Source: an uncultured Acidobacteriota bacterium (GTDB lineage: Bacteria > Acidobacteriota > Thermoanaerobaculia > UBA5066 > Gp7-AA6). From it: a stretch of 64,000 nt of DNA. The DNA lies in assembly GCA_963739435.1 (NCBI GenBank), contig CAVUAN010000024.1, positions 39,486-103,485 of the forward strand, written 5' to 3'. Each line of letters begins with the position of its first letter. Position 1 is the first letter of the stretch. Under the pieces are notes generated by a model. The model saw nothing but the letters and a program-made list of their open reading frames with translations. It made no database searches and was not told the origin of the DNA. Positions 6,449 through 55,405 of the stretch are shown here, one piece after another. The position numbers and the translations under genes are program-made.

Positions 6449-6452
6449 CATC

Positions 6453-10003: not shown

Positions 10004-10044
10004 AGAAGTTAGGCGGCCTTCCGAGGAACAGCAGGGCTGACGAA

Positions 10045-10488: not shown

Positions 10489-10522
10489 GGTCCCCTCCTC
10501 TCTCTAAAAGGTGTCGTTCTCC

Positions 10523-11620: not shown

Positions 11621-11728
11621 AGCCAGTCATCCTCGGCTCATATTGTCCGCTCCGCCTGATTTCTTCGCATGGTCCGCTTGCATCAGACGGATTCGCAGAT
11701 TCTCGTAACTCGGTTTCCTCGCTTGGGC

Positions 11729-12667: not shown

Positions 12668-12729
12668 GGGGACAGACTAGGCCGCGGCCCCGTTCCAGGC
12701 TTGATCCATCCGAATCAGGGAGAGGCGCG

Positions 12730-14205: not shown

Positions 14206-14239
14206 GCCCGCCGCGCGCGGGCGCTTTCCTTCCTTCTCT

Positions 14240-16730: not shown

Positions 16731-16751
16731 GCACGGAAGAACATACCAAAA

Positions 16752-19196
16752 CTATTCGGGAACGAACACGGAGAGCCTCTCCCCGAGCGCGCGGAACGCA
16801 CTGACCCACTGGGCGGCGTCGCTGTCGCCCTGCTCGGCGCGCCCGCGGCTCTCGGGCCATGCGCTCTGCTGCAGCTCGAAAAAGATGTTCTGCGCGTTCC
16901 ACAGCTCGACGGCAAACGGCAGCGATCGGGCGAGGGTTGCGAGGACCTCCAGGTCCTGCAGGGCGGGGAGGCTTGCCGGAGTGGCGCGCCACCGCCGCGC
17001 CAGACGCTCCACGGTCCGCTGGAACGCGTAGCCGAGGCCATCCTCCGGCAGGCGCACTCCCACGCGGGCGGCCTCGGCAAGCGCGGACTCGATCCGCGAA
17101 AGATCCGGCGTCTCGGCGTCGAGGGCCCGCCGCAGCGCGGTTGTCAGCGCGAACTCGGCGGCGACCCGGAAGGCCCGCGGCAGCGGGATACCGTGGTCGT
17201 GCAGAAACCGCATCAGGGGCTCGTGCCGGTCGTAGAGCTGGCGATACGCCGCGTCCGCCTCGGCGAGCGTGTCTTCCAGGATCAGCCGGACGATCTTGCG
17301 CTGCTCGTCTTTGAAGAGGTGCTTCAACGAGTACGTCTCGGACGTGAAGTGGCGGTCCATGAGGCGCAGCACGGCGGCGAGGTCGCCCCGCCCGAAAGTC
17401 TCGGACAGGCTTCGGACCAGGCCGCCGTAGGCTTCGTCGGATTCCAGCCGGCCGATGCCGCCGGCGATGTTCTGGTCGCCCAGGTGGAGGGCGCAGAAGC
17501 TGACGCGCTCGTTCTCCCCCGTGACCTCCGAGATGATGCGCGCGCGCCCGAACGCGAGCCGGGCACGCCCGCCCGTGACGGCCGCGAAGTCCTCCCGCTC
17601 GACCGTGTAGCAGAAGACCCGCGTTCTCTCGGGGTACTCCTCGAACAGGGAGCTGACCGCGTAGTGGGCGGCGACCTTGTCGAGATCCACCCGGGCGGGC
17701 CGCACGAAGTCTTCGTAGACCTGGCGGCCGTCGCCCCGCTCCGGGTCGTTGCTCTTCGCCTTCCCGAGGCGATCGAGAAACGGGTCTTCGAAACCGCGGG
17801 AACCGCGCGGTCCGTCGGCCCGGCCCGCCAGATCGATGGCACGCCCGGCGTACTCGAGGATCTGCTGGCCCTCGAGACCCGCCAGGTCGTCGAAGAACCA
17901 GCCGCAGCTGGTGAACATGAGGAGAGCATGCCGCTGCAGCTCGAGCAGCTCGACTGCCGCAATCCGCTCGGCCGGCGAAAGCTCCCGGCGGGCGTGGCCT
18001 CGCAGGAACGCCTCGAGGCTCGCGGGCGTCCGGTCGAGCACCACGCCGACGTACGCGTCGCGCGCCGCCCAGGGGTCGGCAAAGAACTTGCCGGCCTTCG
18101 CCTCGAAGACGGGCGCGAGCGCATCGCGCAGGGCGTCGAGGGCTTCGCGCAGGGGCGCCCTCCACGCCTGGTTCGTCCTCGGATCCGTGCGGCAGCCGCA
18201 GTCTTTCTCCCACCGCCCGACGCCGTGCGAGCAGCTCCAGGACGTCCTCTCGAGGATGGCAGCCTCGTGAAGGGGCGGATGCGCAGCCAGATACTCGCCG
18301 TAGTTCGTCAGCCGGACGCCTTCCTGCGTCCCGAGGTGGCGCAGAGCGTATGCGAGAGCCATGTCGCCGAACCGGTGATGGTGGCCGAAGGTTTCGCCGT
18401 CGGTGGCGATGTGGACGAGCTGGTCTTCGGCGAGCACAGGGTCGGCGTCGAATTGGCCGAGCAGGCGTTCGACCAGCAGCTCGCCCCTCTGGAGGAGCCG
18501 TTCGAAGGCCACGGCGCGGGAGATCGGGCCATCGTAGAAGAAGACGGCGATCGATCTGCCCGACGGCAGCGCGACGCGGTAGGGGCGGCGCGGGTCGATC
18601 CGTCCGCCCGAAACGTCCTCCCACTGCGCCTGCGCCGATCTCGCGTTCGCGGTCGGCCTGGTGCGGCGAGAGGATGGTGAACAGGATCCCCTGCTCGGCC
18701 AGCACCTCGAGCGATTCCGTATCGACCGCCGTCTCGGGCAGCCACATCCCTTCCGGAAAGCGCCCGAATCGCCTCTCAAAATCGCGGATACCCCAGACGA
18801 CCTGCGTGACTTTGTCCCGACGGGTGGCAAGAGGAAGGATGGCGTGGTTGTAGGCCTGAGCGATGGCGGAGCCATGTCCCGAGAACCGCCCGGCGCTCGA
18901 GCGGTCGGCTTCGAGGACCGCGGCATACACCTCGGGCGAGTTCTTCTCCATCCAGGAGAGCAGCGTCGGCCCGAAGTTGAAGCTGATTCTCGCGTAGTTG
19001 TTCTCGATCGAGACGATTCGGTTCTTCCCGTCGAGGATGCGCGGCGTCGCATTGGGTCCGTAGCACTCCGCCAGGATCCGCTCGTTCCAGTCGTGGTACG
19101 GGTAGGCGGAGTCCTGCAGCTCGATCGCCTCGAGCCACGGGTTCTCCCGCGGCGGCTGGTAGAAGTGGCCGTGGATGCAGATGAAGCGGCGGGAAG

Positions 19197-19200
<4 letters not shown>
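16752..19200 (-). CDS. GH57-family glycoside hydrolase with DUF3536-type C-terminal domain, apparent frameshift near 18650
   Basis: TTG start at 19200 overlaps the glgB stop. The N-terminus ICIHGHFYQPPRENPW...NFGPTLLSWM..HAILPL lies in the frame of the long ORF 16426..21084. From QAQWEDVSGGRIDPRRPY..TDGETFGHHH..SCGWFFDD onward it is in ORF 16752..19052. Confidence 0.85.
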
Positions 19201-21263
<2,063 letters not shown>

Positions 21264-30792: not shown

Positions 30793-31923
30793 ATGACTAT
30801 CCCCGAAGTTGCGACTGTCCTCCCGCCTCTGTACGCGCGATGGATGGACGCTCTGCTCGCATCGCCGATCCCTCCCGAGAAGCGCGCAACGTGCGACGAC
30901 TGCGCCATGTGCGCGCCCGAAGGAACGGACCCGCTCGGCAGCATTCTGTACTTCAGCCCGCGCACGAAGTGCTGCACCTACCATCCGACGTTGTCCAACT
31001 ACCTGGTCGGACGGGCCCTCGAGGACCGCGACTTCGCGTTCTCGGCCGGGCGGGCGACCCTCGAGAAGCGTATCCGGGCAGGCGTCGGTGTGACTCCGCT
31101 CGGCGTCGGGGCGGCCCGGACCTTCAGCGTGCTGTACGAAAACGGCAGCCAGGCCTTCGGCCTTGCAGAATCCCTGCGCTGCCCCCACTACCTGGAGGAA
31201 GGGGGCGGGCGCTGCGGCATCTGGCGGCATCGGAACTCGATCTGCGCGACCTGGTTTTGCAAGTTCGAGCGGGGCGCCGTGGGAGAGGCATTCTGGGACC
31301 GGCTGCGCAACCTCCTCATGACGGTCGAGCGCGCGCTCGCCATCTGGTGCGTGCTGGAAGCGGGCCTCGAGACTGAGGCCCTCGGCGCGGTCTTCCCGCA
31401 GGACCAGCGGCCCGGCGGACGCGAACCCTTGACGGCGGCCGAGCTGGACGGTGTTCCGGACCCGCCCGTGGCTCGGAAGCTCTGGGGAGCCTGGTTCGGC
31501 CGCGAGGACGAGTTCTACCGTCTGTGCGGCCGGCGCGTGGAAACCCTGACGTGGCCCGACGTCGAGCGCATAGGCGGCTCGGAAGTCACCGCCCTGGCTC
31601 GACTGACGTCTCGCGCGTTCCACGCGCTTCGTTCCACGGAGCTGCCGGGGCGCCTCACCACGGGACCGTTCCAGGTGCTCTCCACGGGTCGCGAGGGGGT
31701 TCGGGTCATCGCCTACACGGGATCCGATCCTCTGGATCTCGACCCGGCGGTCATGGAGATTCTGCCTCACTTCGATGGCCGCCCCACCGGCCAGGTTCTG
31801 GCCTCGATCGAAAAGGAGCTTGGTGTCCGAGTGGAAGAGGATCTCGTGCGTAAGCTCGCCGACTTCGAGATCCTCAAACCATCTGGCTCGTCGAGCTCAT
31901 CTCGAGGGCCTCGCTCTTCTTAG
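30793..31923 (+). CDS. Cys-rich YkgJ-like (putative Fe/Zn-binding) protein with a PqqD/RRE-like C-terminal segment
   Basis: ATG at 30793 in ORF 30334..31923. Cys motifs are CDDCAMC, KCCTYHP and LRCPHYLEEGGGRCGIWRHRNSICATWFC (YkgJ-type C..C.I...R...C..F.C). The C-terminus AVMEILPHFDGRPTGQVLASIEKELGVRVEEDLVRKLADFEILKP fits the PqqD-like pattern ..DG..t..ei...l......e.l..dv..fl..l... Confidence 0.7.
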   Translation: MTIPEVATVLPPLYARWMDALLASPIPPEKRATCDDCAMCAPEGTDPLGSILYFSPRTKCCTYHPTLSNYLVGRALEDRDFAFSAGRATLEKRIRAGVGVTPLGVGAARTFSVLYENGSQAFGLAESLRCPHYLEEGGGRCGIWRHRNSICATWFCKFERGAVGEAFWDRLRNLLMTVERALAIWCVLEAGLETEALGAVFPQDQRPGGREPLTAAELDGVPDPPVARKLWGAWFGREDEFYRLCGRRVETLTWPDVERIGGSEVTALARLTSRAFHALRSTELPGRLTTGPFQVLSTGREGVRVIAYTGSDPLDLDPAVMEILPHFDGRPTGQVLASIEKELGVRVEEDLVRKLADFEILKPSGSSSSSRGPRSS

Positions 31924-32102
31924 ACCTCACCCTTCGATTTGTCCCGGCCCTTTGCCCTTTTTCCCGGTTGTCGAGCCGGTTGTTCCTGTCTTCCGAGGCG
32001 TTCGCCGAACACCCGTTTGGAGCTTCCACCTCGAACGTCCTTGCGGGGGGCCAGGTCGTTCAAGAGGATTACGTCCGGACGCCGGCGACGATCCTTCTTC
32101 AT
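31920..32102 (-). CDS. Stand-alone double-glycine-leader peptide (60 aa), seventh member of the peptide system
   Basis: Manual translation gives MKKDRRRRPDVILLNDLAPRKDVRGG|SSKRVFGERLGRQEQPARQPGKRAKGRDKSKGEV. An SD-like AAAGGGG lies 7-8 nt upstream, and a sigma-54-type promoter lies ~49 nt upstream. The ending DV(K/R)GG is shared with the array leaders. The ORF track lists it as 31920..32135 from an upstream ATG. Confidence 0.55.
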   Translation of the reverse strand: MKKDRRRRPDVILLNDLAPRKDVRGGSSKRVFGERLGRQEQPARQPGKRAKGRDKSKGEV

Positions 32103-32149: not shown

Positions 32150-32165
32150 AGCAGTTTCCTTGCCA
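32150..32165 (-). promoter_or_regulatory. Sigma-54 (-24/-12) promoter candidate: TGGCAAggaaaCTGCT
   Basis: The minus strand reads TGGCAA-N5-CTGCT. The GG and GC have exactly the canonical spacing of TGGCAC-N5-TTGCW. It lies ~49 nt upstream of the peptide ATG at 32102. Confidence 0.6.
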
Positions 32166-32280
32166 TCCGTCGGGGCCGAAGCAAACCGCTCGCCAATCAG
32201 GAGTTCGGCAAGGGGCCGGGACCGGAACGCGCGCTCATGGTCGCGAACGGAGGCCATCGATGGTCTCGAAACGTATCCAG

Positions 32281-33279
32281 TCATCGCCGCACGGCCGGAC
32301 GATCCGAGAGCTTGCGGTCCAGCCGCGATCGGGAGATTCCCAGCGCCTTTGCCGCCCGCCGCTTGTTTCCTCCCAGCCGCGAGAGGACCTCTCGGATGTG
32401 CCGGCCCTCGGCGGCCGCCAGAGTGAGGCTTCCGTGCGGTGAGCCATCGCCTGCAGGATCCGGCGGATAGAACGCCGGCAAAGCCGGGATCTCGCGGTCC
32501 CCCTCCAGGAGCAGAGCCCCGGCCGTAACGATCTCCTGCGGTGAAAGAGCCACGGCTGCGTCGATGACCCGCGCCAGCTCCCGGAGGTTGCCGGGCCATG
32601 AGTAGGAAAAGATCCGCTCGGCCGCCTCCCGCTCGAGGCCCACGATCGGCTTGCGCTGCTGGCGGCTGGCACGGGCGATCTCGGAGGCGAGCAGCAACGG
32701 CAGGTCTTTTCGCCGATGCCGCAACGGCGGGACCGTGATCGTCAGACCGCTGACCCGAAAGAAAAGATCGCGCCGGAACCTGTCCGACTCGGTGAAGGTC
32801 ACCGCCGGGAAATGCGTGGCCGAGATGACCCGCACGTCGGCGACCTGGATCTGCTCCGAGCCCAGCCGCTCGAACTCGCCGTACTCGATCGCGCGCAGGA
32901 TCTTGGCCTGGCCGGCCGGGCTCATGTCGGCAATCTCGTCGATGAAGAGCGTGCCGCCGTCGGCCAGCTCGAACTTTCCCCGCACGCGGCTCTGAGCCCC
33001 TGTGAACGCCCCGCGCTCGTGGCCGAAGAGCTGGCTGTCCAGGAGCGTGTCGGAGAGCGCGGCGGCATTGAACGAGACAAAGGGTCCGCGAACGCGCGAG
33101 GAGCTGTTATGGATCGCCCGGGCCAATAGCGTCTTGCCGGTGCCCGACTCGCCCAGGATCAGGATCGGCAGGTCGGTCCGCGCCGCCAGCTTTGCCCGCT
33201 CGAGGCAGGCGGCCATCGCCGGATCGACGCTGTGGTAGGAGTCGAGCTTGAGGTCCGAGGAGCCGTCGGGGCGCGTCAT
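32281..33279 (-). CDS. Sigma-54-dependent transcriptional activator (bEBP) with AAA+ and Fis-type HTH domains only, no N-terminal sensor or receiver domain
   Basis: 332 aa: Walker A GESGTGKT, the GAFTGA motif (ERGAFTGAQ), LFIDEI, WPGNLREL, and a C-terminal HTH GGNKRRAAKALGISRSRL. Confidence 0.92.
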   Translation of the reverse strand: MTRPDGSSDLKLDSYHSVDPAMAACLERAKLAARTDLPILILGESGTGKTLLARAIHNSSSRVRGPFVSFNAAALSDTLLDSQLFGHERGAFTGAQSRVRGKFELADGGTLFIDEIADMSPAGQAKILRAIEYGEFERLGSEQIQVADVRVISATHFPAVTFTESDRFRRDLFFRVSGLTITVPPLRHRRKDLPLLLASEIARASRQQRKPIVGLEREAAERIFSYSWPGNLRELARVIDAAVALSPQEIVTAGALLLEGDREIPALPAFYPPDPAGDGSPHGSLTLAAAEGRHIREVLSRLGGNKRRAAKALGISRSRLDRKLSDRPAVRR

Positions 33280-33286
33280 GCTTTGA

Positions 33287-34510
33287 TCACTTCTCGCTGG
33301 CCAGGTTCTCCTTCAACTGGCGCAGCGGCTCGAAGGCGTACGAGAGGAGCGACCGCCGGCCCACGATGACGCGGGCGCGTCCGGCCATGCCGGGGACCAC
33401 GGGTCGGGGCTGTCCGTGGACCAGGACCTGCGTCTCACGCAGGTCCGCAAGGGCGCGGAAGGCCGACGTGCCGCCCTTGCCGCCGACTGTCTCGGGGCTG
33501 ACCCAGCGGATGGTCGCCTGGCGCACTCCGTAGCGCTGATAGGGGAAGGCGTCGTACAGGAGCTTGACGGGCTGGCCGGTTCGGACGAGCGCCATCCCAT
33601 CCTGCGGCAAGGTCAGCTCCGCCTGGAGCGTCTGGCCCTCGCATGCCAGTTCGGCCAGAAGGTCGCCCTCGCGGACGGTCGCGCCGGCGCTGCGAACGTG
33701 CAGCTGGAGGATGCTCCCGGTACAGGGGGCTGGCACAGTCAACTGGTTTCCCGTCCGGGCGAGCTCCTTCTCGAGCATTGCCGTGCGGATGTTCGCCCGG
33801 GAGAGCTCTTCGGCGAGACCGCGCTGGACCTCCTGGAATTGAGCCTGTCGCGAGCGCCGCTCGAAGCGCAGCTTCTCCGCGGCACGCCGCGTGTCTTCGC
33901 GTTGGGATTTGGCCTGCTCGGCCTCGACCTCGAGCCGGTTGATCTCCAGCCGCAGGCGCGCGAGATCCATCCAGCTCGACACTCCCTCGTCGAGGGTCTT
34001 CTTCTGGCGGTCCGCGAGCTCGGCCGCGAGAGCGAGCTGCTCGCCGTTCTTGACAATCGTCCGATCCAGGCTCTCGAGGCGCGCCTTCAGCTGCTGCTCC
34101 TCTTCGCCGTCTGCCTTCTGCTCACCGTCGTACTTCTGCCGGGCGTTGGCGAGGCGGTCCCCGGCGCCGGCAATCTGAGCTTTCAGGCCTTCCCACTCCG
34201 CCGCGCGGTCACCGACCGGCGGAGAGGCAATCGTGAACATCGTTTCACCCTCCCGGACCGGCTGCGCGTCGAAAGCCTTGACCTCCGTCACGATCCCGTC
34301 CTTGAAGGCGCGTATCGGGTCGGTGCCACGGACGGGAGCGAGGACGAACGTAGCCGCCACCGTCTCCGGGACGCGGAGGAGGACCGCCGCCAGGGCCGCA
34401 AAGGCAAAGAGCGCGAGAAGGATCGAAGCGAGCGCCCGGGCGGCCCACGGGGGCGGCTCCCGGTCGAGAAAGGGCTCTGCGCTTTCGGGAGATCCGGCGA
34501 CAGCGTTCAT
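33287..34510 (-). CDS. HlyD-family membrane fusion / secretion adaptor protein
   Basis: ATG at 34510 in ORF 33287..35101. One N-terminal TM helix (ILLALFAFAALAAVLL), a long coiled-coil (QLKARLESLD..RLEINRLEVEAEQAK), and a C-terminal beta-barrel ending GMAGRARVIVGRRSLLSY. Confidence 0.88.
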   Translation of the reverse strand: MNAVAGSPESAEPFLDREPPPWAARALASILLALFAFAALAAVLLRVPETVAATFVLAPVRGTDPIRAFKDGIVTEVKAFDAQPVREGETMFTIASPPVGDRAAEWEGLKAQIAGAGDRLANARQKYDGEQKADGEEEQQLKARLESLDRTIVKNGEQLALAAELADRQKKTLDEGVSSWMDLARLRLEINRLEVEAEQAKSQREDTRRAAEKLRFERRSRQAQFQEVQRGLAEELSRANIRTAMLEKELARTGNQLTVPAPCTGSILQLHVRSAGATVREGDLLAELACEGQTLQAELTLPQDGMALVRTGQPVKLLYDAFPYQRYGVRQATIRWVSPETVGGKGGTSAFRALADLRETQVLVHGQPRPVVPGMAGRARVIVGRRSLLSYAFEPLRQLKENLASEK

Positions 34511-37500
34511 CAGTCCGACACCCCGAGCTGCTGGCTCGAAAGATAGTAGTAGAGGCCCTTTCGCTGGAGAAGCTCGTCGTGCGTGCCGCGTTCGACCAGC
34601 CTCCCCTTCTCGAGCACCAGGATGGTATCCGCGTTGCGGATGGTGCTCAGGCGGTGGGCGATGACGAAGCAGGTGCGCCCCTCGAGCAGCCGGTCCATGT
34701 TCTCCTGCACGGCGCGCTCGGATTCGGTGTCGAGCGAGCTCGTCGCCTCGTCGAAGATCAGAACGGGTGGCTGGGTATAGACCGCCCGGGCGATGGCGAC
34801 CCGCTGCTTCTGGCCGCCGGAGATGGCCAGGCCGCTCTCGCCGATCTTCGTTTCGTAGCCCAGCGGCAGCCGGTCGATGAACTCGTGCGCATTGGCCACG
34901 CGCGCCGCCCAGAGCACTCGATCCATGTCGGGCTCCGCCTCGCCGAAGGCGATGTTCCGGGCGATCGTGTCCGAGAAGAGATAGTTCTCCTGGAGGACGA
35001 ACCCGATCTGGCGCCGCAGGTCGCGGTAGTTCAGGGTCTTCAGATCGACGCCATCGTAAGTAATCGAGCCCTGCGTCGGCTCGAGCAGGCCCGCCAGGCA
35101 CTTGACCAGAGTCGTCTTGCCCGAGCCGCTGCGGCCGACGATCGCCACGAACTGGCCGGGCGGAGCCTCGAAGCTGATGCCCTCGAGAATCGGCAGGCGC
35201 TTCGGGGCCGCCGTAGCGAGAAGCCGAGGTTCGTCAGCTCGATCGCGGCCCTCGAGGCTCTTGACCGGATGGAGGCGCGAGCGGTCGGCGCCCTGCTCGG
35301 GCTCCTGCTCGAAGACGTCGTTCAGGCGGTTCAAGAGAACCGAGGAGCGCTGCCAGTTGTCCCAGATCGTGAGCAGCGTCAGCACCGAGACGTTGGCCAG
35401 CGCGACGAGCGAGTTGAAAGCAACCAGGCCGCCGATGGTGAGCGGACCCGGCCATCACCTGGCGGGCGCCGGCCCACAGGAAGAGCACGGTCGTCAGGAT
35501 GGTCACGGTCTGCACGCCTCCCAGGTACGACATCACCGTGAAGTCGGCCCGGAACATGCGCCGTCGCCACGCTCAGGAACTGATTCAAGCATGATCTCGC
35601 GGAAGGAGCCTTCGGCGCCCAACGCCTTCACCGTCTCGATGCCTTTGATGGCGTCGATCTGGTGGGAGTGGTACTTGCCGAAGGAGTCCTCGAGGGTGTC
35701 GAAGACGGGGCGCAGCCAACGGGCGGAAAGAACCATCAATAGCCCGTAGAGGGGAGCCGTCAGCAGGAATACGACGGTCAGCGCACGGCTGTAGATGAGC
35801 ATGAGGATGAGGCTCGCGCCGAGCTGGGTCGCCGCCGCGAGCCCCGCAACACCGCTCTGGACCAGGAACTCCCGGACATTCCGCATGCCTTCGAGACGCC
35901 GCTGAATGTCTCCCGTGCGGCGCGTCGAGAAGTAGACATCGGAAGGGCCAGGAGCTTGCGGGTCAGGAAGTCGAGCGATGACGCGTCGATCCGCACGGCG
36001 ACGAAGCTCAACAGATAGCGCTGGACGCCCATCGATAGGACCTGGAAGACCAGGACCGCGATCATCGAGACGACGATCATGTTCAAGAGCGACGCGTCGT
36101 CGTTCGACGAGCACCCGATCAACGATGACCTGCGTGAAGATGGGCAGAATCATCTGCAGGGCGGCACCGATCAGGCCGAGCCCGAGCGCCTGGAGCAGGA
36201 TGCGCTGGAAGGGCCGGAAGAACGGTACGAGCCACGCCAGATTCGACGGCGTGACCGGCGCCGTCTCGAACGCGTCGGTGTAGTCGAAGAGGGCGGCATA
36301 GCCGGACCAGCGCTCTTCGAACTCGGAACGGGTGAACCGCCGCAACCCGAAAGCCGGGTCGGCAACGCGGCAGTGCGTCGGCGTGACGTCGTGGAGCACC
36401 ACCCAGTGGTTGCCCTCCCAGTGAACGATGGCGGGCAGCGGCATCTGCGCAAGGTTCTCCGGGGAGGCCTTGACCGACCGCGCGGCGAGGCCAAGCTCGG
36501 TCGCGGCGTGGCAGAGCCCCTTCAAGCTCGTGCCGTCCAGGGACGTGTGCACGAGCTGGCGGATGCGCGCCAGGCTGACAGCCCGCCCGTAGTGCCGGCA
36601 CACCATGGCGAGGGACGCGGCGCCGCAATCCATCTCGTCGATCTGCCGCACGACGGGGAAGCGCCGGATGCGGCCGGCCGACTTGACGAAGCGGCCGTCC
36701 TCGGCGAAGGGGGCGCCCTCGACCTCGCCGCCCGCCTCGGTCTCCTCCTCGCCCTGCTCGACCTGATCCGGGCCAACCATCTCCTGGACGGCAGCCTCGG
36801 CGGGCAGGATCTCCTCGGCGAAGTCGAGGGGTACGCGCGCGGTCTGCCGGTAATCGTATTGCGCAATCCGTTCTTCGATCTGGGCCCCGAGGCCGGGAAC
36901 CTCGGCGAGGAGCTTGCGGAAAGTGTCGGGGCGCAGCACGAGGAGCCGGCACGGCGAGACGGCTTCCACGCTCGCGGTGCGCGAGACCCCCTGGAAGACG
37001 GACATCTCCCCGAAGAAATCTCCCTTGCGAAGATAGGCGACATAGCGGCGGCGGCCGTCCTCCTCGGTGAAGACGCGCAGGTGCCCGTCTTCCACGATGT
37101 AGAGCGGCCCGGCCGAATCGCCCTGACGCACGACGACTGTTCCCTTCGTGACTTCGAGCGGAGCGAGCTCCGACAGAAGCGTCGCGAGAGCGGCCGGGGG
37201 AAGCCGGGCGTACGGGATGTAGTGGTGAAAGAAGTTCTCGAGCTTGCGGTGCTTGATTTGGAGCTCGAAGTATTGGCGGATGTCCGGGCTGCGTCGCACG
37301 AGCGCTTCGAAGACGGACTTGTCCAGCCGCAGAGCCTCCACGTCGCTGGACGCTCGAACGGTCGCCGTGCGGGTCGAGTGGTCCAGCAGACCCATCTCGC
37401 CGAAGCTTTGTCCGGGCCGCAGGCTGGTCAGGGCGATCTCCTCCCCCTGCTCGCCGAGCTTGACGACGCGCGCTTTTCCGGACACCAGGACGTAGAACGC

Positions 37501-37641
37501 GTCCGCTGAATCGCCTTCCCGGACGATCAGGTCGCCGAAGGCGAACGATGCCGGCTCGAAGCTCTCGACGACGAGGGCCCGGGTGTCGGCAGGCAGGAAC
37601 CGCAGGATCGGCAGGTCTTCGAGCCGCTCGCGTCCGGTCAT
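34510..37641 (-). CDS. Peptidase-C39 ABC exporter (PCAT) with two N-terminal cyclic-nucleotide-binding domains; at least five apparent frameshifts (~36100, ~35945, ~35590, ~35560, ~35450)
   Basis: ATG at 37641. There are two CAP_ED-like domains (FGEMGLL..RTATV.A and FFGEMSVF..SRTASVEA). The C39 domain is VVRQIDEMDCGAASLAMVCRHYG..HWVVL. The TMD pieces lie in ORFs 35533..37995, 35778..36122, 35379..35588 and 35234..35557. The NBD in ORF 34510..35385 carries GRSGSGKTT, LSGGQKQRVAIARA and LIFDEATS. A stretch GRDRADEPRLLATAAPKR at ~35170-35250 looks locally out of frame, where GRIELTNLGFS.. would be expected. Confidence 0.85.
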
Positions 37642-37645
37642 GGCG

Positions 37646-38707
37646 TCAGATCCGCTGGACCCAGCGAACGCGCGCCTGGATCTCGTGTTCGACGGCGGCC
37701 GCCCGCAGGTGGAACTCGGCGCGCCGCCGGACCTCCGGGTCCCTCTCCGAGGGCAGGGCCTTGTCACGGACGAGAAGGAGATGGAACTCCTCTCCGAGCC
37801 GGAGCGGGCCCACGAGATCGCCCGGACCGGCCCCGAGCAGCTGGGGCCTTGCGGTCTCATCGACGTCTTCCAGGTACAGACGCGACTCCCGCGGCGCGGT
37901 GTGCGCGTTGGCGGCGACCGCTTCGAGCGAGTCGCCGTCCTCTCGCAGGCACAGCAGCGCCTCTTGCGCGGCGGCCTCCCGGGTGAAGCCGACATCCTGG
38001 ACGTCCAGCCGGACCCAGTCGAGGTTTCGCGCCTCGATCGCTCTGCGGACGGCCGGCGGCGTGGCGAGGCGGCGGCAAATGTCTTCGAACACGAGAGTCA
38101 GCCTCGCCAGCTCCGCGATCCGCTCGGCTCCAGGCGGTACCAGGTCGGGAGGTCCGGACCGCTCGAAAACGCTCGAGACCTCGACAACGGCGCGCTTCAT
38201 GTCTTTGGGCGTCGGCTCTGCGTGCTGGCCCGTCCCTCCGGCTGCAGACGCCTGCCCGAGGGCGGCTTGCCCGGCGAGGGTCTCGGCGAACCGGGACAGC
38301 GCTCCGGAACAAACCGACTCGGCCAGGATGCACTCCGAGATCTCGTCGTTCTCGGGAGCGAAGGCGGACAGGTCCTCATCGGGAGTGCCGCCAGCCCGCA
38401 GGAGCGCCCGCTCGATGTACTCCATCCAGTCGTCGACAGAAAGCCCGGCGCGGGCCAGCCACGCCTCCATTTCCTCGGCCGCAATGAGCTCGCGCTCGTA
38501 TCGGAACTCCTGTGCGGCCGCTTCGAGCTCCTCCTCGGAGACCGTCTCTCCGGCCTCTTCCGCGCGGTGGGAGAGGGCGAGGCCCTGGCGGACCTGCTCC
38601 TCGAGTGCGGACCAGTCTCCCCGCAGCACGGCGGCGGCAGCGACATCCCGCCACATGTAGGTGTGCTCACCTACGGTGAACGCCGGACGAGTCCAAAAAG
38701 TGTCCAT
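37646..38707 (-). CDS. Parvulin/PpiC-like C-terminal-domain protein, putative peptide maturation or chaperone component
   Basis: ORF 37646..38863. The likely start is ATG 38707 (MDTFWTRPAFTVGEHTYMWRDV); the alternative is GTG 38863. The C-terminus PGDLVGPLRLGEEFHLLLVRDK resembles the end of rotamase domains (G.vs.Pv.t..G.Hii.v). It lies 4 nt upstream of the PCAT start. Confidence 0.7.
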   Translation of the reverse strand: MDTFWTRPAFTVGEHTYMWRDVAAAAVLRGDWSALEEQVRQGLALSHRAEEAGETVSEEELEAAAQEFRYERELIAAEEMEAWLARAGLSVDDWMEYIERALLRAGGTPDEDLSAFAPENDEISECILAESVCSGALSRFAETLAGQAALGQASAAGGTGQHAEPTPKDMKRAVVEVSSVFERSGPPDLVPPGAERIAELARLTLVFEDICRRLATPPAVRRAIEARNLDWVRLDVQDVGFTREAAAQEALLCLREDGDSLEAVAANAHTAPRESRLYLEDVDETARPQLLGAGPGDLVGPLRLGEEFHLLLVRDKALPSERDPEVRRRAEFHLRAAAVEHEIQARVRWVQRI

Positions 38708-38874: not shown

Positions 38875-38890
38875 TGGCACCGATGCTGCT
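38875..38890 (+). promoter_or_regulatory. Sigma-54 (-24/-12) promoter candidate: TGGCACcgatgCTGCT
   Basis: A perfect TGGCAC -24 box, N5, and a CTGC -12 box with canonical spacing. It lies ~33 nt upstream of the GTG of the first peptide gene and shares the CTGCT -12 element with the promoter at 32150..32165. Confidence 0.7.
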
Positions 38891-38921: not shown

Positions 38922-39110
38922 GTGAGCAAGAAGAAAGCGGCGAAAGCGAAAACGGCCCGAGGCATCCGGAATCTTCCCGCGAAGACGCTGACCGCCAAGA
39001 ACGCCCGGAACGTCAAAGCCGGCAAGGCTCAGAATGCCGACGGATCACTGGATGCGGGCATACATTTCAAGTACGACATCAAGGCCCAGAAAAACTTTCG
39101 CACTCGTTGA
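38922..39110 (+). CDS. GG-leader peptide 1 (62 aa)
   Basis: GTG start preceded by GGGAGG. Sequence: VSKKKAAKAKTARGIRNLPAKTLTAKNARNVKAG|KAQNADGSLDAGIHFKYDIKAQKNFRTR. It is the C-terminal part of track ORF 38661..39110. Confidence 0.75.
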   Translation: MSKKKAAKAKTARGIRNLPAKTLTAKNARNVKAGKAQNADGSLDAGIHFKYDIKAQKNFRTR

Positions 39111-39154
39111 TCGGGGGAAAGGTCCCGCGAGGCCTGAGATCAATTGGTTCCGAC

Positions 39155-39283
39155 GTGAGCAAGGTGAAAGAGAAGGCGGCCCGTGGCACCCGGGATGTTC
39201 CCGTGAGGACGCTGACCGCCAACCATGCTCGGGACGTCAAGGGGGGGCGAGGCGCCGGAGTGAAGCGACACCAGTACATGTAG
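39155..39283 (+). CDS. GG-leader peptide 2 (42 aa, most divergent, no clear SD)
   Basis: VSKVKEKAARGTRDVPVRTLTANHARDVKGG|RGAGVKRHQYM. It is the C-terminal end of the spurious track ORF 37583..39283. Confidence 0.5.
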   Translation: MSKVKEKAARGTRDVPVRTLTANHARDVKGGRGAGVKRHQYM

Positions 39284-39347
39284 TCGCCCCAGGAATCTCG
39301 GCTGACATCGGTACGGCTGCTGTGAGCGAAGAAAGAAAGGGGACACC

Positions 39348-39500
39348 ATGAGCAAGAAGAAGGCAGCGAAAGCGAAGACGGCCCCAGGCATCCGGAAGCT
39401 TTCCCCGAAGACGCTGACCGCCAAACAGGCCAGGGGCGTCAAGGGTGGCAAGCACATCGGCAACGTCAAGTACACAGACAACACCGGACTCAAGCGATGA
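39348..39500 (+). CDS. GG-leader peptide 3 (50 aa)
   Basis: Manual translation: MSKKKAAKAKTAPGIRKLSPKTLTAKQARGVKGG|KHIGNVKYTDNTGLKR. An SD-like AAAGGGG lies upstream. Not in the ORF track (<60 aa). Confidence 0.75.
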   Translation: MSKKKAAKAKTAPGIRKLSPKTLTAKQARGVKGGKHIGNVKYTDNTGLKR

Positions 39501-39544
39501 TGACCAGGAGGCCTTAGAAAAAAGGACGTTAAGGAGGAGGCGAC

Positions 39545-39697
39545 ATGACCAAGAAGAAAGCGGCCAAAGCGAGCAAGGCCCGAGGCATTCGGAAGCTTCC
39601 CTCGAAGACGCTGACCGCCAAACAGGCGCGGGACGTCAAGGGCGGCAGGAAGATCGGCGACATCAAGGGGGAAAGCCTCGGAATAATCAGGCGATGA
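39545..39697 (+). CDS. GG-leader peptide 4 (50 aa)
   Basis: Manual translation: MTKKKAAKASKARGIRKLPSKTLTAKQARDVKGG|RKIGDIKGESLGIIRR. A strong SD, AAGGAGGAGG, lies upstream. Not in the ORF track. Confidence 0.8.
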   Translation: MTKKKAAKASKARGIRKLPSKTLTAKQARDVKGGRKIGDIKGESLGIIRR

Positions 39698-39738
39698 CGA
39701 CAAGGAGAGCTTAAGAAAAACGTTGAGGAGGGGGCAGC

Positions 39739-39894
39739 ATGAGCAAGAAAAAGCCAGCGAAAGCAAAAACGGCCCGAGGCATCCGGAATCTTCCCGCAAA
39801 GAGCTTGTCCGCCAAATCGGCCCGGGACGTCAAGGGGGGCCGCAAGGCCGGCAAGGGCCAACAGGAGTTCTTGAGCGCCATCCGAGAAAGGTAG
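39739..39894 (+). CDS. GG-leader peptide 5 (51 aa)
   Basis: Manual translation: MSKKKPAKAKTARGIRNLPAKSLSAKSARDVKGG|RKAGKGQQEFLSAIRER. The SD is GAGGAGGGGG. The intergenic spacer is homologous to the one before peptide 4. Not in the ORF track. Confidence 0.8.
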   Translation: MSKKKPAKAKTARGIRNLPAKSLSAKSARDVKGGRKAGKGQQEFLSAIRER

Positions 39895-39900
39895 GGCGAC

Positions 39901-40095
39901 ATGGACAAGAAGAAGACCGGGAAGACCAGGAAGTCCAGGGCGGCCACCTCGGTGAGAAATCTTCGCGTGAAAACGCTCGACGCCAGGAGCGCGAAGGGCG
40001 CCAAGGGAGGCGCCACGAGCGAGCTGACGATAACGCGCGTCGTCGACAAGTCCAGCCCGGTCTTATACCAGTCCGAGCCGAGCCTGAAGAGATAA
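39901..40095 (+). CDS. GG-leader peptide 6 (64 aa)
   Basis: Track ORF: MDKKKTGKTRKSRAATSVRNLRVKTLDARSAKGAKGG|ATSELTITRVVDKSSPVLYQSEPSLKR. The leader is divergent but keeps RNL..KTL.A..AKG.KGG. Confidence 0.75.
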   Translation: MDKKKTGKTRKSRAATSVRNLRVKTLDARSAKGAKGGATSELTITRVVDKSSPVLYQSEPSLKR

Positions 40096-40168
40096 CCAGA
40101 GAGCGACAGCTCGTCCCCCGAAGCAACTGAGGGAGGAGGCGCGCGCCGCGCGGACGCGCGAGCGACGG

Positions 40169-40621
40169 TTACACCTCGCTGTACTCCGGGACGTAGCCCG
40201 CCATCAGGCTGTCCTTGGGCAGGATCGTCTGGCCCGGGCCGGCGCCTGGATCGCCCGTCTTGACCCAGTGCCAGGCGTGAACGATCTCGGCGGCCGGGTA
40301 ATAGCGCGTCTCCGCCTGGACCAGGACCGTGCCGGCGAGGATCTCCGCCTTGATGTCCTCCCAGCGGTGCGCGCCCACGACGGCCACGCGCTCGATCTGC
40401 TTCGCGTGCCTGGAGAGGAACTTGATCTCTTCCCACCGGGCAGCCCATTCGGTCCCCTTCATGGCGGAAAGATCCGCCAGGATTCCGATCGTCCGCTTGC
40501 CCCGATCGCCCATTGCCGTCTCGATCTGAGGTTCGAAGGCTTTGACCTCGGCAGCTGTGACCGTCCCGGTCACCTTGAACCCGAACGCCTTTCCCCCGCT
40601 CTCCTTCAGCTTCTCGATCAT
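40169..40621 (-). CDS. STAS/SpoIIAA-like protein (DUF3478-like)
   Basis: 150 aa: FGFKVTGTVTAAEVKAFEPQIE..IGILADLSAMKG..ERVAVVG. The family call is from memory. Confidence 0.65.
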   Translation of the reverse strand: MIEKLKESGGKAFGFKVTGTVTAAEVKAFEPQIETAMGDRGKRTIGILADLSAMKGTEWAARWEEIKFLSRHAKQIERVAVVGAHRWEDIKAEILAGTVLVQAETRYYPAAEIVHAWHWVKTGDPGAGPGQTILPKDSLMAGYVPEYSEV

Positions 40622-40828: not shown

Positions 40829-40903
40829 TGGAGCGGGAAACCGGGGTCGAACCGGCGACATCCACCTTGGCAAGGTGGCGCTCTACCACTGAGCTATTCC
40901 CGC
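40829..40903 (-). tRNA. tRNA-Gly (anticodon GCC), CCA encoded
   Basis: The minus strand reads GCGGGAATAGCTCAGTGGTAGAGCGCCACCTTGCCAAGGTGGATGTCGCCGGTTCGACCCCGGTTTCCCGCTCCA. It folds as a cloverleaf with a 7-bp acceptor stem, the anticodon stem CCACC/GGTGG with loop TTGCCAA, and a GTTCGA T-loop. Confidence 0.93.
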
Positions 40904-52553: not shown

Positions 52554-53081
52554 CTACACTTTCTGCTTCAGAGCCTTGAGGGCTTCCCACCGGGGGTCGG
52601 CGATCTCGGCGACACAGCCGCAAGCCCTTTCGTTCAAATCCTGTCCGCACTCCGGGCAGAGGCCCTTGCAATCCTCCCGGCACAGCGGCTTCATCGGTAC
52701 CAGCATCTGGATGCGTTCTTCGACAATCGGCGCCACGGGCACGACCGTGTCGTCGTAGAAGGAGACGTCGAGGTCGTCTTTCTCGAGGGCGACCTCTTCC
52801 CCCAGGGGACCCCGGGGACACAGCACGAGCGAAAACGTCTCGTCCGCCTCGAAGGGGTAGGCCGCGAGGCAACGGGAGCACTCGAGCTCGCCGCCGTAGG
52901 CGATGTGGGCGTCGAGCGCGTATCCCTTCTCGATGCGCGAGACCTCGCCGTCCACCCGAATGGCGGTCAACGAGACGAGCGGCTCCCGGCCGAGCGTCTC
53001 GGCCGATAACGGCACGACGAACTCGAAGGCGACCGGGTCGTCGTGGATGGCTTCCAGCGAGAGAGTGTTCTGGTGTTGCAT
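52554..53081 (-). CDS. yceD: YceD/DUF177 family protein (large-subunit ribosomal-protein-L32-associated)
   Basis: ATG at 53081 (alternative 53096) in ORF 52554..53498, giving ..[27 protein letters not shown]. The position upstream of rpmF and plsX is canonical. Confidence 0.85.
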
Positions 53082-53156
53082 GGCCGAACCGCGCATTTTA
53101 GCGAAGCCTCCGCTCCAGTCAAATGGAAGCGGTTGGGAGACTGTAAACTGCTCCAA

Positions 53157-54260
53157 ATGCGAGTCGCGATCGATGCCCGAGCCCTCATGGGAGCGCAAAC
53201 GGGCATCGGCACCTACACGCGCGGCATCGCAAGGGCTCTTTCCCGGCGCCCGGACACGCAGGTGGGCCTTTTCTCGCCGCGCCCGCTGCCCGACGGGCCG
53301 AAAGGCGAAGGCCTCACGGCGCTCCACGGGCCGGATCTGCCGGGCATCCTCTGGACCCAGACGGCCTTTGCCGGCCGCGCTGCCGCCTGGCAGGCCGATG
53401 TCCTGCTCGCGGCGCTCACGATCGCGCCTTTCTCCTCCCCCCTGCCCGTCGTGTCGGTCGTCCACGATCTGACGCCGGTCACCAACCCCGAGTGGCACGC
53501 CGCGCGGACGCTCATCGGTTTCCTGCCCTTCTGGGACCGCACCGCCGAGCTGGCGGCGCGCTTCGTCTGCGTCTCCGAAGCGACCGGGCGCGTGCTCGCG
53601 CGGCTCTATCCCGACACCGCAGGCCGTCTCCGCGTCGCCCCCAACGGCGTCGACCCCGAATTTGCTCCCGGCGGCAATGACGCCACGCGCCGGGAGGCGC
53701 GGGAGCGCTTCGCCAACGGACGGCCCTTCGTCCTGTACCTCGGTACGCTCGAGCCGCGCAAGAACGTCACGGCCTTAGTCGAGGCCTGTGAACGTCTCTG
53801 GGAGGAGCGCGCCGATCGCCCCGACCTCGTGCTCGCCGGAGGTGTGGGCTGGAAGGCTTCGCCCATCCTGGCGCGCATCGAAGCTTCGCCCTTTCGAAGC
53901 CGCATCCACCTGGCGGGTTACGCCGCGCGCGAAACCGCCCTCTCGCTGTACCGCTCGTGCGAGGCCTTCGTCTACCCGTCGTTCGTCGAGGGGTTCGGCC
54001 TGCCGCTGCTCGAAGCGATGGCCTGCGGAACGCCTTGCGTAGCATCGACGGCCGACGCTTTAGTCGAGGTCGGCGGAGACGCCGCACTCTACGCCCCGCC
54101 CGGGGACCCGCAGGCGCTCGCCCGGCTCATCGCCCAGGCTCTCGAGGATTCCGAAACGAGAAGGCGCCTGGCTGCAGCGGGACCCCGCCGGGCCGCCTTG
54201 TTCACCTGGGAGGCGGCTGCGGCGGCAACGGCCGCTGCCCTCGAAGAGGCCGCGGCATGA
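53157..54260 (+). CDS. Glycosyltransferase family 1/4 (GT-B)
   Basis: ATG at 53157 in ORF 53043..54260 gives MRVAIDARAL, LGTLEPRKN and the E-x7-E region YPSFVEGFGLPLLEAMACGTP. Confidence 0.88.
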   Translation: MRVAIDARALMGAQTGIGTYTRGIARALSRRPDTQVGLFSPRPLPDGPKGEGLTALHGPDLPGILWTQTAFAGRAAAWQADVLLAALTIAPFSSPLPVVSVVHDLTPVTNPEWHAARTLIGFLPFWDRTAELAARFVCVSEATGRVLARLYPDTAGRLRVAPNGVDPEFAPGGNDATRREARERFANGRPFVLYLGTLEPRKNVTALVEACERLWEERADRPDLVLAGGVGWKASPILARIEASPFRSRIHLAGYAARETALSLYRSCEAFVYPSFVEGFGLPLLEAMACGTPCVASTADALVEVGGDAALYAPPGDPQALARLIAQALEDSETRRRLAAAGPRRAALFTWEAAAAATAAALEEAAA

Positions 54261-55405
54261 GCCGCGTCCGGCATCCGCCCCGCCCGCTCGTCGGTATCGA
54301 CGCGCGCAAGCTCAGAGACTTCGGCATCGGTTCCTATGTCCGCAACCTCCTCGAGGCCCTCGCGCGGCGGCCCGAGTCGATGGCGTACCGGTTCCGGGTG
54401 TTTGCGCGCCGTGTCGACCGCGATGCCCTGCCTGCCCTGCCTCCGCACTTCGACGTGGCGACCGAGGAGGCGCCGAGCTACTCCCTCTCCGAGCTGACCG
54501 GATTTGCCTGGCGCCTGTGGCGCCACCGCCTGGACCTCTTCCACGCGACGCACTACGTGCTGCCGCCGCTGCCCCGCGGCCGCGCCGTCGTCACGATCCA
54601 CGACATCATCCACTTGCTCTACCCGCAGTTCCTGCCCAACCGAGCCGCCCACGTCTACGCCCGCATCATGATCCGCCGGGCCTTGAAGCGCGCCGACAAG
54701 ATCATCACGGTCTCGCACAACTCGAAGCGCGACCTCGTGGAGCACTTCGGCATTGCCCCCGCCGGCGTCCAGGTCATCTACAACGGCGTCTCGCCCCGCT
54801 TCCGCCCCGACGTGCCCGGCGAGGAGCGCCGCCGCGTGGCCGACAAGCTCGGCCTCCCCTCGCCGTATCTCCTCTTCCTGGGCGGCGAACGGCCGCACAA
54901 GAACGCCCGCAATGTCGTGCGGGCCTTCGCGGAGGCCCGAAGGGGCCACCAGCTGCCGCACGTTCTCGTGCTTGCCGGGCCCATGCCCCGGAACGAGGGC
55001 CGAGTCGCGGCGTTGATCTCCGCCCTCGATCTTACGGATTCGATCCGGCGGCCAGGGCTCGTGGACGATGACGACATGCCGGGCCTCTTTGCCGGCGCGG
55101 ACGCGTTTCTCTACCCGACCCTGTACGAGGGATTCGGCCTTCCGGTCGTCGAAGCCATGGCCTGCGGCACTCCGGTCCTGACGTCTTCGACCTCGGCGCT
55201 GCAGGAAATCGCGGGCGGCCACGCGCTGCTCGTCGACCCGATGGACGCCACCGCGATCGCGGCGGGCATCGTCACGCTGGCGACCGAGCCCGCCAAACGG
55301 GCCGAGTTGACGAAGCTGGGACTCGCGCGCGCCGCAGACTTCTCCTGGAACAAGACCGCCGAGGCGACGCTCTCCGTCTATGCCAGCACCCTGACGGGCC
55401 GATGA
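54257..55405 (+). CDS. Glycosyltransferase family 1/4 (GT-B)
   Basis: The ATG at 54257 overlaps the upstream stop. Motifs: GIDARKL, GGERPHKN and YPTLYEGFGLPVVEAMACGTP. Confidence 0.88.
   Translation: MSRVRHPPRPLVGIDARKLRDFGIGSYVRNLLEALARRPESMAYRFRVFARRVDRDALPALPPHFDVATEEAPSYSLSELTGFAWRLWRHRLDLFHATHYVLPPLPRGRAVVTIHDIIHLLYPQFLPNRAAHVYARIMIRRALKRADKIITVSHNSKRDLVEHFGIAPAGVQVIYNGVSPRFRPDVPGEERRRVADKLGLPSPYLLFLGGERPHKNARNVVRAFAEARRGHQLPHVLVLAGPMPRNEGRVAALISALDLTDSIRRPGLVDDDDMPGLFAGADAFLYPTLYEGFGLPVVEAMACGTPVLTSSTSALQEIAGGHALLVDPMDATAIAAGIVTLATEPAKRAELTKLGLARAADFSWNKTAEATLSVYASTLTGR

Follow-up and report, generated by a model that had tools for sequence, protein, structure and literature searches.

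Several systems are known in which small peptides leave the cell through a peptidase-containing ABC transporter (PCAT), among them the class II bacteriocins, the class II microcins, ComA/ComC and PCAT1. The locus described here is located in a 64,000-nucleotide stretch of DNA (the window) from an uncultured Acidobacteriota bacterium (GenBank assembly GCA_963739435.1, contig CAVUAN010000024.1, positions 39,486 to 103,485 of the forward strand), where a tandem array of six minigenes adjoins a PCAT operon. It resembles the known systems in having precursor leaders that end in a double glycine (GG) or in AG, with hydrophobic residues at positions -4 and -12, and an adjacent exporter with a C39 peptidase domain, while a HlyD-type adaptor is shared with the microcin systems of Gram-negative bacteria. 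It differs from them in its leaders, which are about 34 residues long and strongly basic, in the two cyclic nucleotide monophosphate (cNMP)-binding domains at the amino-terminus of the exporter, and in its cores, which by homology are conserved fragments of a structural protein, the tube protein Hcp of the type VI secretion system (T6SS), and not dedicated toxins or pheromones. The loci show no evident immunity gene (no systematic search for one was made).

Related PCATs export the NHLP and Nif11 families (Haft), GG-cleaved precursors with a variable core and a leader that is derived from a known larger protein. The peptides of our locus likewise form a large GG-cleaved precursor family in which part of each peptide stems from a larger protein, and the intact exporter of a related locus (L002) has TIGR03796 as its best NCBIfam match. 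Here, however, the protein-derived part is the core, the TIGR03796 match reaches 530 bits against a cutoff of 853, and no NCBIfam, NHLP or Nif11 model matches the leaders or peptides in an NCBIfam scan of the window peptides. In the cyanobacterial bacteriocin cluster groups I, II and VI, a long-type PCAT, HlyD and a SurA/rotamase-like protein are found beside multiple GG precursors (PMC3140520), and PCATs with cNMP-binding domains of the HetC type are also known (PMC10986499). This three-part machinery with GG precursors is common to the cyanobacterial clusters, the TIGR04500 system and our locus, one protein of which matches TIGR04500, a PpiC-related model named 'putative peptide maturation system protein', at 4e-11. 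That match scores 42.8 bits against a cutoff of 180, making the protein a distant relative only; our locus also belongs to another phylum and has in addition a sigma-54 activator and a Cys-rich protein with a domain resembling a RiPP recognition element (RRE; RiPP, ribosomally synthesised and post-translationally modified peptide).

The array occupies positions 38922 to 40095 of the + strand and consists of the following elements, in which assignments to Hcp are by homology and letters denote the piece types described further on:

38922 to 39110, + strand: p1, GTG start, AG-ending leader; core KAQNADGSLDAGIHFKYDIKAQKNFRTR, the carboxy-terminal piece of Hcp (type F, Hcp 135-158).
39155 to 39283, + strand: p2, GTG start, no Shine-Dalgarno (SD) site, three-codon deletion in the leader; core RGAGVKRHQYM, weakly like RKAGKGQ.EY (Hcp 88-96).
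39348 to 39500, + strand: p3; core KHIGNVKYTDNTGLKR, a diverged paralog of p4 (amino-terminal piece of Hcp).
39545 to 39697, + strand: p4; core RKIGDIKGESLGIIRR, the amino-terminal strand of Hcp (type A, Hcp 8-17).
39739 to 39894, + strand: p5; core RKAGKGQQEFLSAIRER, Hcp 87-97 (type D, truncated in the window).
39901 to 40095, + strand: p6; core ATSELTITRVVDKSSPVLYQSEPSLKR, Hcp 54-72 (type B).
40121 to 40141, + strand: vestigial spacer, a third copy of the SD-containing spacer, AAGCAACTGAGGGAGGAGGCG (repeat family D4), 3' of p6 and with no gene after it.

The preliminary description of this DNA had reported six leader-sharing minigenes on the + strand, and their open reading frames (ORFs), coordinates and translations were all reproduced. 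The common Lys-rich leader, M/V-SKKKAAKAKTARGIRNLPAKTLTAKxARxVKGG, ends in GG in five of the six peptides and in AG in p1, again as described; the AG recurs in the p1 ortholog of a related locus (L001). Each unit has its own start codon, its own leader and an SD site, with the exception of p2, which lacks the SD site. The array is far from anything expected by chance: scored with a hidden Markov model (HMM) of the leader, the window peptides reach E-values of 2e-11 to 2.5e-20, and p2 reaches 3.5e-7. In DNA comparison the units are direct repeats of 93-133 nt with 70-82% identity, and the SD-bearing spacers 5' of p4 and p5 are homologous to each other, so that the tandem duplication proposed earlier is borne out. 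By alignment, p3 is a diverged tandem duplicate of p4, while p2 looks like a degenerate copy and resembles p5. The spacer at 40121-40141 is probably the remnant of an array unit that was lost or deleted.

For the six window peptides themselves, Pfam and NCBIfam scans give a weak Hcp match, and for p6 only (Pfam PF05638, T6SS_HCP; E=0.005, sub-threshold, profile positions 38-68), and a single-sequence phmmer search of p6 against the Protein Data Bank (PDB) returned noise only. The link to Hcp is solid once homologs are collected. Four relatives (P0017, P0010, P0009 and P0041) exceed the Pfam gathering cutoff, each at a separate stretch of Hcp, and concatenated cores align to Hcp proteins of 158 amino acids with E-values of about 1e-63, at 62-73% identity over 98-100% of the length of the concatenate. 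The window cores were scored with an Hcp HMM built from 119 full-length Hcp proteins, with 500 shuffles per core. The p1 core obtains 36.1 bits at Hcp 135-158 (and is 83% identical to Hcp in tblastn), the p4 core 9.9 bits at Hcp 8-17, the p5 core 11.4 bits at Hcp 87-97 and the p6 core 9.3 bits at Hcp 54-72, with 0 of 500 shuffles in each of these four cases. In the wider family, 47 of 72 unique cores map to Hcp, as do 38 of 100 further cores from an exhaustive search. Together they tile Hcp positions 2-27, 50-110 and 123-159; hardly any core comes from the glycine-rich loop 28-49 or from part of 111-122. Single cores share 90-100% of their residues with real Hcp segments. Identity to authentic Hcp is complete for cores of 25, 23 and 18 residues (25/25, 23/23 and 18/18) and reaches 70/72 for the longest core; full-length type D cores of relatives are identical to Hcp at up to 23 of 23 positions.

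The full-length relatives of the cores are, by sequence and gene context, genuine Hcp proteins of the T6SS. One of them (P0110) is encoded between VipA/B and the TssF/TssG/ClpV/VgrG genes in locus L009, and another (P0069) matches Hcp1 of P. aeruginosa (PDB entry 1Y12) at 8e-44. Directly after the hcp gene of L009, a truncated Hcp-like ORF of another Hcp subtype is located (10494-10778, 94 amino acids), which is probably a frameshifted paralog. Among the peptides, the following pieces recur:

Type A, about Hcp 2-16: ...FAKLGDIKGES..
Type B, about Hcp 52-72: ..DLSFVHxVDKASPVL..
Type C, about Hcp 62-86: ..KASPVLMQACATGTHMKEATITH
Type D, about Hcp 87-107: RKAGKGQQEYLVVKMNDVIIT
Type F, about Hcp 135-158: KPQKADGSLDAGIHFKYDLKAQKEG

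A set of five pieces, with one each of A, B, C, D and F, is present in four related loci (L002, L012, L013 and L016); the type A cores of the first three (AADIFAKLGDIKGESRR and similar) are orthologous to p4, and p6 has its ortholog in L001 (P0037). The order in the window array is F, degenerate D, A', A, truncated D and B, with C absent, and several window cores end in short basic tails that do not come from Hcp (LKR, IRR, RER and RTR). Each core covers one or two secondary structure elements of Hcp, the complete domain of about 160 amino acids being absent; the AlphaFold2 model of full-length Hcp was poor (pLDDT 45, shallow alignment) and served only for approximate strand boundaries. The cores are thus co-linear with Hcp1-type tube proteins and up to 100% identical to genuine Hcp segments. 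They differ from such proteins in that each gene carries 10-35 Hcp residues (at most 72) fused to a secretion leader, which makes the fold and the ring impossible for a single peptide, and in that none is located in a T6SS cluster. The preliminary description had regarded the cores as hypervariable and unrelated to one another after the GG. This does not hold: as identified by these alignments, the cores are fragments of the T6SS tube protein Hcp, conserved within a piece type, and those within one array differ because they are different parts of one protein.

Two more Hcp-like fragments, GSLDSGVHFQHDIQGYKEG and KASPLLAQYCVTGQIIKKVVL, are present but uncalled in the array of the closest relative of the window (L001, 10510-10566 and 10973-11035). 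Some family cores that do not match the narrow Hcp HMM resemble other Hcp subfamilies by eye. Others looked like the amino-terminus of a type IV pilin (FTLIE..., LLPAVQKVRE) or like a tail tube protein of the gp19 type (GRLKWxxITLKRG), the members concerned being P0169, P0253, P0238, P0201, P0213 and P0252; this likeness was not confirmed, the only profile match being to PF06841 with an E-value of 0.077 (one peptide) and NCBIfam giving none.

With a profile built on the six peptides, 45 small proteins (50-111 amino acids) were recovered from other genomes and metagenomes. A HMMER profile of the leader alone, a search proposed in the preliminary description, was run over 1.84 billion representative proteins and retrieved 110 clusters at E<=1e-3, mostly of 40-70 amino acids and mainly from Acidobacteriota; a leader search of metagenomes gave five loci, one of them spurious. 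Of 145 family members, 137 carry GG as the cleavage motif, seven AG and one SG, and the cores have a median length of 23 residues (range 6-72). Double-glycine leaders have conserved hydrophobic residues at -4, -7, -12 and -15; in the leader alignments, -4 is a conserved V and -12 a conserved L, -7 and -15 are alanine and there is an additional conserved L at -17. When orthologous minigenes from five genomes are compared, the differences are mostly synonymous, with a pooled pN/pS (ratio of nonsynonymous to synonymous differences per site) of 0.44 for leaders and 0.48 for cores, at a pS of about 0.5. Several comparisons of A, D and F pieces give a core pN of 0.02-0.17 at a pS of 0.3-0.78. For each piece type the cores are at least as conserved between genomes as the leaders (identity 0.84 against 0.69 for type F and 0.74 against 0.62 for type D). 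The array genes also occur on a SPAdes-style NODE contig from short reads (L002) and on JGI metagenome contigs. Since pN/pS is below 0.5 and the differences are mostly synonymous, the substitution pattern identifies the minigenes as translated genes under long-term purifying selection.

The operon that diverges from the array contains four genes:

37646 to 38707, - strand: PpiC/SurA-like protein (TIGR04500 E=4e-11, below the cutoff; Rotamase_2 E=0.011 in both orthologs; SurA parvulin domain E=0.05).
34510 to 37641, - strand: PCAT, with two cNMP-binding domains, a C39 peptidase domain, an ABC membrane domain and an ABC ATPase domain.
33287 to 34510, - strand: HlyD-type adaptor (membrane fusion protein; Pfam HlyD_3, TIGR01843), 63% identical to that of L002.
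32281 to 33279, - strand: sigma-54 activator (enhancer-binding protein; Pfam Sigma54_activat 2e-59, HTH_8), 73% identical to the L002 ortholog.

The arrangement of GG precursors beside a divergent C39 ABC exporter with HlyD, proposed in the preliminary description, is confirmed at the domain level: the C39 domain matches Pfam Peptidase_C39 at 1e-37, and its Cys/His/Asp triad is intact in the alignment to PCAT1 (PDB entry 4RY2). The PCAT is 69% identical over 1040 amino acids to the intact L002 protein, and the start codon of the adaptor overlaps the PCAT stop codon. The activator is made up of an AAA+ and a helix-turn-helix domain only, without a sensor domain. On inspection, the PpiC/SurA-like protein has no obvious signal peptide and is therefore probably cytoplasmic; its gene is syntenic in L001, L002, L006 and L008, and a scan of genome contigs with this protein gave three loci. 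No known tailoring enzyme was recognised among the locus proteins scanned, and PADLOC gave generic domain matches only, the locus not being a catalogued defence system.

The gene order (Cys-rich protein, pep7, activator, adaptor, PCAT, PpiC-like protein, array) is conserved in the window, L001 and L002, pep7 being a seventh peptide gene described below. In two metagenome-assembled genomes (MAGs) of Acidobacteriota (L006 and L008), pep7 is likewise accompanied by the activator, adaptor, PCAT, PpiC-like protein and arrays, and a homolog of the Cys-rich protein is encoded at another place on the same contigs. In L012, L013 and L016, the Cys-rich gene and a five-piece array are present with no exporter nearby. 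These three loci have the same flanks as L002 (PadR ... AhpC/TSA, SnoaL, acetyltransferases, RnfD, DUF2330 and Ddl), and the block of activator, adaptor, PCAT and PpiC-like protein is absent from them. Gain or loss of the export module seems to affect all of its genes together.

Promoters of the sigma-54 type were searched with the -24/-12 pattern TGGC-N7-YTGCW. The window contains four matches, against 1.5 expected, and three of the four are directly upstream of genes for GG peptides. These three motifs and pep7, a GG peptide gene additional to the six of the array and missed in the preliminary description, are the following:

38875 to 38890, + strand: sigma-54-type promoter TGGCACCGATGCTGCT, 32 nt upstream of the p1 start codon.
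32150 to 32165 and 32180 to 32195, - strand: two tandem sigma-54-type motifs upstream of pep7.
31920 to 32102, - strand: pep7, a GG-type minigene with leader MKKDRRRRPDVILLNDLAPRKDVRGG followed by core SSKRVFGERLGRQEQ...; the leader differs from that of the array and the core is not Hcp-like.

The motif is located upstream of the arrays in five loci (window, L001, L002, L012 and L013), and several long ORFs that were mis-called in metagenomes translate across it. The pep7 gene of L002 is also preceded by an equivalent motif. In one T6SS cluster examined, the motif was absent upstream of hcp, and scans for sigma-70 promoters and terminators gave nothing above chance. The pep7 leader carries the motif ..LLNDLAPRKDVRGG and its core is conserved as KR[VL]FGERI... 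(KRVFGERL... in the window). Orthologs adjoin the activator gene in L001 (2633-2809), L002 (1742-1909), L006 and L008. The pep7 gene always adjoins the activator gene, and it could encode a regulatory or inducer peptide.

Convergent with pep7 is the gene of the most faithful companion of the peptides:

30793 to 31923, + strand: Cys-rich protein of 376 amino acids, with amino-terminal Cys pairs and a carboxy-terminal beta3-alpha3 domain that is RRE-like.

The amino-terminal region of this protein contains four invariant pairs of close-set cysteines and gives a sub-threshold match to Pfam CxxCxxCC (E=0.027). Its L002 counterpart is 65% identical and located in synteny, and at least 575 homologs exist, all without an informative name; synteny of the gene with the peptide arrays extends to at least seven loci (window, L001, L002, L010, L012, L013 and L016). 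The AlphaFold2 model is of good quality by its own scores (pLDDT 88, pTM 0.89) and displays the beta3-alpha3 topology. Foldseek finds no global structural relative, and there is no sequence match in the PDB, but the carboxy-terminal domain gives local matches to TbiB1 (PDB entry 5v1v; probability 0.89, TM 0.52, E 0.46) and to PqqD (probability 0.51, E about 0.5), which are not significant. Our locus is like the RRE-dependent RiPP pathways in combining leader-plus-core precursors with a conserved protein whose beta3-alpha3 domain superposes on TbiB1 and PqqD, and unlike them in that the fold match is local and statistically weak and that the attached Cys-rich domain has no characterised homolog. 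Tentatively, we take the Cys-rich protein to be a probable leader-binding partner and possibly a modifying enzyme as well. The preliminary description had already suspected this protein, to which the array synteny and the local fold match now draw further attention, but it had also considered the products probably unmodified linear peptides. This last assumption is not safe: with an RRE-like Cys-rich protein and a TIGR04500-related protein conserved in the locus, the unmodified state of the peptides cannot be assumed.

Two further loci bear on this protein family. In L011, where the Cys-rich protein is labelled Pyrinomonadaceae by NCBI, the region 5290-20857 combines Lys-rich leaders ending in ...KVKGG with LanB- and LanC-like genes, a cNMP-PCAT, a rotamase, two adaptors and a Cys-rich homolog, from which the Cys-rich family is probably a general component of RiPP clusters. 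Some L011 cores carry Cys and Ser/Thr. In L010 (10001-11807), from a Candidatus Rokuibacteriota MAG, three GG minigenes come after the gene of a Cys-rich homolog, and one of these minigenes encodes a type D Hcp core (RKAGEPPVEYLKVKMTDILISG); the presence of Hcp cores in such peptides therefore extends beyond the Acidobacteriota.

Directly downstream of the array and convergent with it, a SpoIIAA/STAS-like protein (40169-40621, - strand) and a tRNA-Gly(GCC) gene (40829-40903, - strand) are located, which are seemingly not conserved with the system; the tRNA is the sole match in an Rfam scan. Elsewhere in the window, overlapping pairs of same-strand ORFs with high GC3 (5588-7316, 7845-10003 and 53043-55405) suggest frameshift errors in housekeeping genes.

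Taken together, we regard the locus, with moderate confidence, as a conserved GG/PCAT peptide-export locus in which pieces of Hcp occupy the core position and would act through mimicry of Hcp; that activity is inferred from the cores being single secondary structure elements of Hcp kept near-native under purifying selection, and the best hint of it is that this selection holds the cores near Hcp while the leaders drift. The reality of the genes, the leader family, the Hcp ancestry, the purifying selection, the conserved neighbourhood, the promoter motifs and the C39 triad have computational support, and to these the following scheme would add transcription, cleavage, export, any modification and, above all, a biological target. 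The sensor-less sigma-54 activator would drive the TGGC-N7-YTGC promoters before the array and pep7. In the cytoplasm, the Lys-rich leaders of about 34 residues would be recognised by the Cys-rich RRE-like protein, which might modify the core; the PpiC/SurA-like protein might recognise them too, or instead, and may keep the beta-strand-prone peptides soluble. The C39 domain of the cNMP-gated ABC transporter would cut after the GG (AG in p1), and the PCAT, the HlyD adaptor and an outer-membrane channel encoded elsewhere would export the cores of 11-28 amino acids. Once exported, the cores might bind Hcp itself, or a protein that recognises Hcp, and interfere with or report on the assembly of the T6SS tube.

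A T6SS-directed role of this kind, be it interference or sensing, is a tentative proposal that we hold possible rather than likely. The scheme in its full form, a sigma-54- and cyclic-nucleotide-controlled secretion of tiled mimics of the beta-strands and ring faces of Hcp, which would be natural inhibitors or sensors of tube assembly in soil Acidobacteriota, directed at T6SS-armed neighbours or controlling their own T6SS, is a little more doubtful still. The pieces themselves provide one lead. The first residues of type D cores are those of the RKAG loop, and type F cores span the carboxy-terminal tail. In the original nanotube work, engineered cysteines in Hcp1 reportedly cross-link stacked rings into tubes. 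The double mutant Hcp1cc carries G90C and R157C (PMC11011275). By our own residue count in an alignment to Hcp1, the D and F cores hold the equivalents of G90 and R157. If cysteines at these two positions do cross-link stacked rings, the D and F peptides would carry the two ring faces that meet in the tube.

A number of points weigh against this reading of the locus. With the Hcp HMM, the p2 core has a marginal match only (Hcp 88-96, 12 of 500 shuffles) and p3 no significant match of its own. The window cores are shorter and more diverged than those of relatives, with p5 truncated and basic carboxy-terminal tails added, and a large minority of family cores have no match to the narrow Hcp HMM. 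Neither T6SS genes nor a full-length hcp were found in the window or in the 10-kb flanks of the related loci examined, L009 being by contrast a real T6SS cluster. The likeness to Hcp could also have been kept by gene conversion from a resident hcp and not by selection for mimicry. Exported peptides would have to reach Hcp, which is polymerised in the cytoplasm, so that an uptake route or an encounter in the periplasm or outside the cell has to be assumed. The RRE assignment is tentative, the E-value of the local fold match being non-significant. Finally, the PCAT as assembled contains at least five single-base indels (around 36100, 35930, 35588, 35563 and 35448) and another near 35250. Read in alternate frames, its protein sequence goes on at 67-75% identity to L002, and the orthologs are intact. 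The related MAGs bear 'MFD' isolate names, which we take to be those of long-read Microflora Danica bins, and the frameshifts are therefore probably errors of long-read assembly rather than signs of a pseudogene; alternatively, they may reflect recent inactivation.

Of the other explanations, the one that survives best is that the peptides are ordinary antimicrobials, similar to class II bacteriocins or microcins, acting on a membrane or receptor, with their descent from Hcp incidental. The GG leader and the architecture of PCAT plus HlyD are those of such systems, the window cores are small and mostly cationic (about +3 by our own count), and the tails LKR, IRR, RER and RTR add basic residues that Hcp does not supply. 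Charge and amphipathicity alone, however, hardly explain piece types that are conserved across genomes and up to 100% identical to Hcp, nor the co-inheritance of a fixed set of five Hcp pieces, and the lack of an evident immunity gene does not speak for this explanation either, within the limit given above. We consider it unlikely, though still worth keeping in view. The label of class II bacteriocin-like system, given in the preliminary description, thus stands for the export route, while it says nothing reliable about activity.

Mimicry of Hcp might also take place inside the producer. The peptides would then bind the cell's own Hcp, or a partner of Hcp, as strand mimics, and their export through the PCAT would relieve this binding and so control the producer's own T6SS, in a manner analogous to the export of FlgM. 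An exporter with two cNMP-binding domains, which makes export probably signal-gated, would suit this role, as would cores nearly identical to the Hcp of the same bacterial group and a PpiC-like protein that is probably cytoplasmic. The T6SS genes that would be controlled are, on the other hand, missing from the window and from the 10-kb flanks of the related loci, the one T6SS cluster examined lacks the sigma-54 motif upstream of hcp, and the arrays of L012, L013 and L016 have no exporter nearby, which together make this explanation improbable.

It is more improbable again that the locus exports a split protein whose pieces join outside the cytoplasm to form an Hcp-like or cross-beta structure, for example a component of a matrix or fibril. 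Such an assembly would account for the conservation of a recurring set of pieces that covers most of Hcp and for the SurA/PpiC-like chaperone that accompanies them. But Hcp 28-49 and part of 111-122, almost never represented, would be missing from it, the piece boundaries overlap and vary, the window pieces are truncated to 11-17 amino acids, and stable refolding from five short peptides is unlikely. That the minigenes are functionless, decaying relics of hcp or an assembly artefact, to which the indel errors in the window assembly, the degenerate look of p2 and the vestigial spacer after p6 might lead one, is highly improbable and was rejected, given a leader and start codon for every unit and an SD site for all but p2, the occurrence of the same genes on the short-read L002 contig and on JGI metagenome contigs, the conserved promoters, and pN/pS values below 0.5 at a synonymous divergence near saturation.

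The export machinery of this locus is familiar, its cargo of Hcp fragments is not. No model of a precursor family with tiled Hcp-fragment cores is present in Pfam, NCBIfam (June 2026) or PADLOC, and no published description of one was found in the literature; the 2011 survey of cyanobacteria by Wang, Fewer and Sivonen does not mention Hcp (PMC3140520). For genome mining, the locus carries a warning, as what looks like 'hypervariable cores' can prove to be a set of fragments from one conserved protein. Should the mimicry of Hcp turn out to be false, the locus still reveals a precursor family of about 110 clusters that lacks annotation and escapes normal gene calling, and an unstudied family of Cys-rich RRE-like partner proteins with at least 575 members. 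What these bacteria maintain is a piecewise 'peptide library' from the T6SS tube protein, conserved among Acidobacteriota, seen at least once in Rokubacteriota and kept near-native by selection. If the mimicry is true, its members would be the first peptides of natural origin to modulate T6SS assembly and a ready source of inhibitor designs; and if the T6SS is indeed their target, ribosomal peptides would gain a new functional class whose defining feature is the molecular mimicry of a structural protein.

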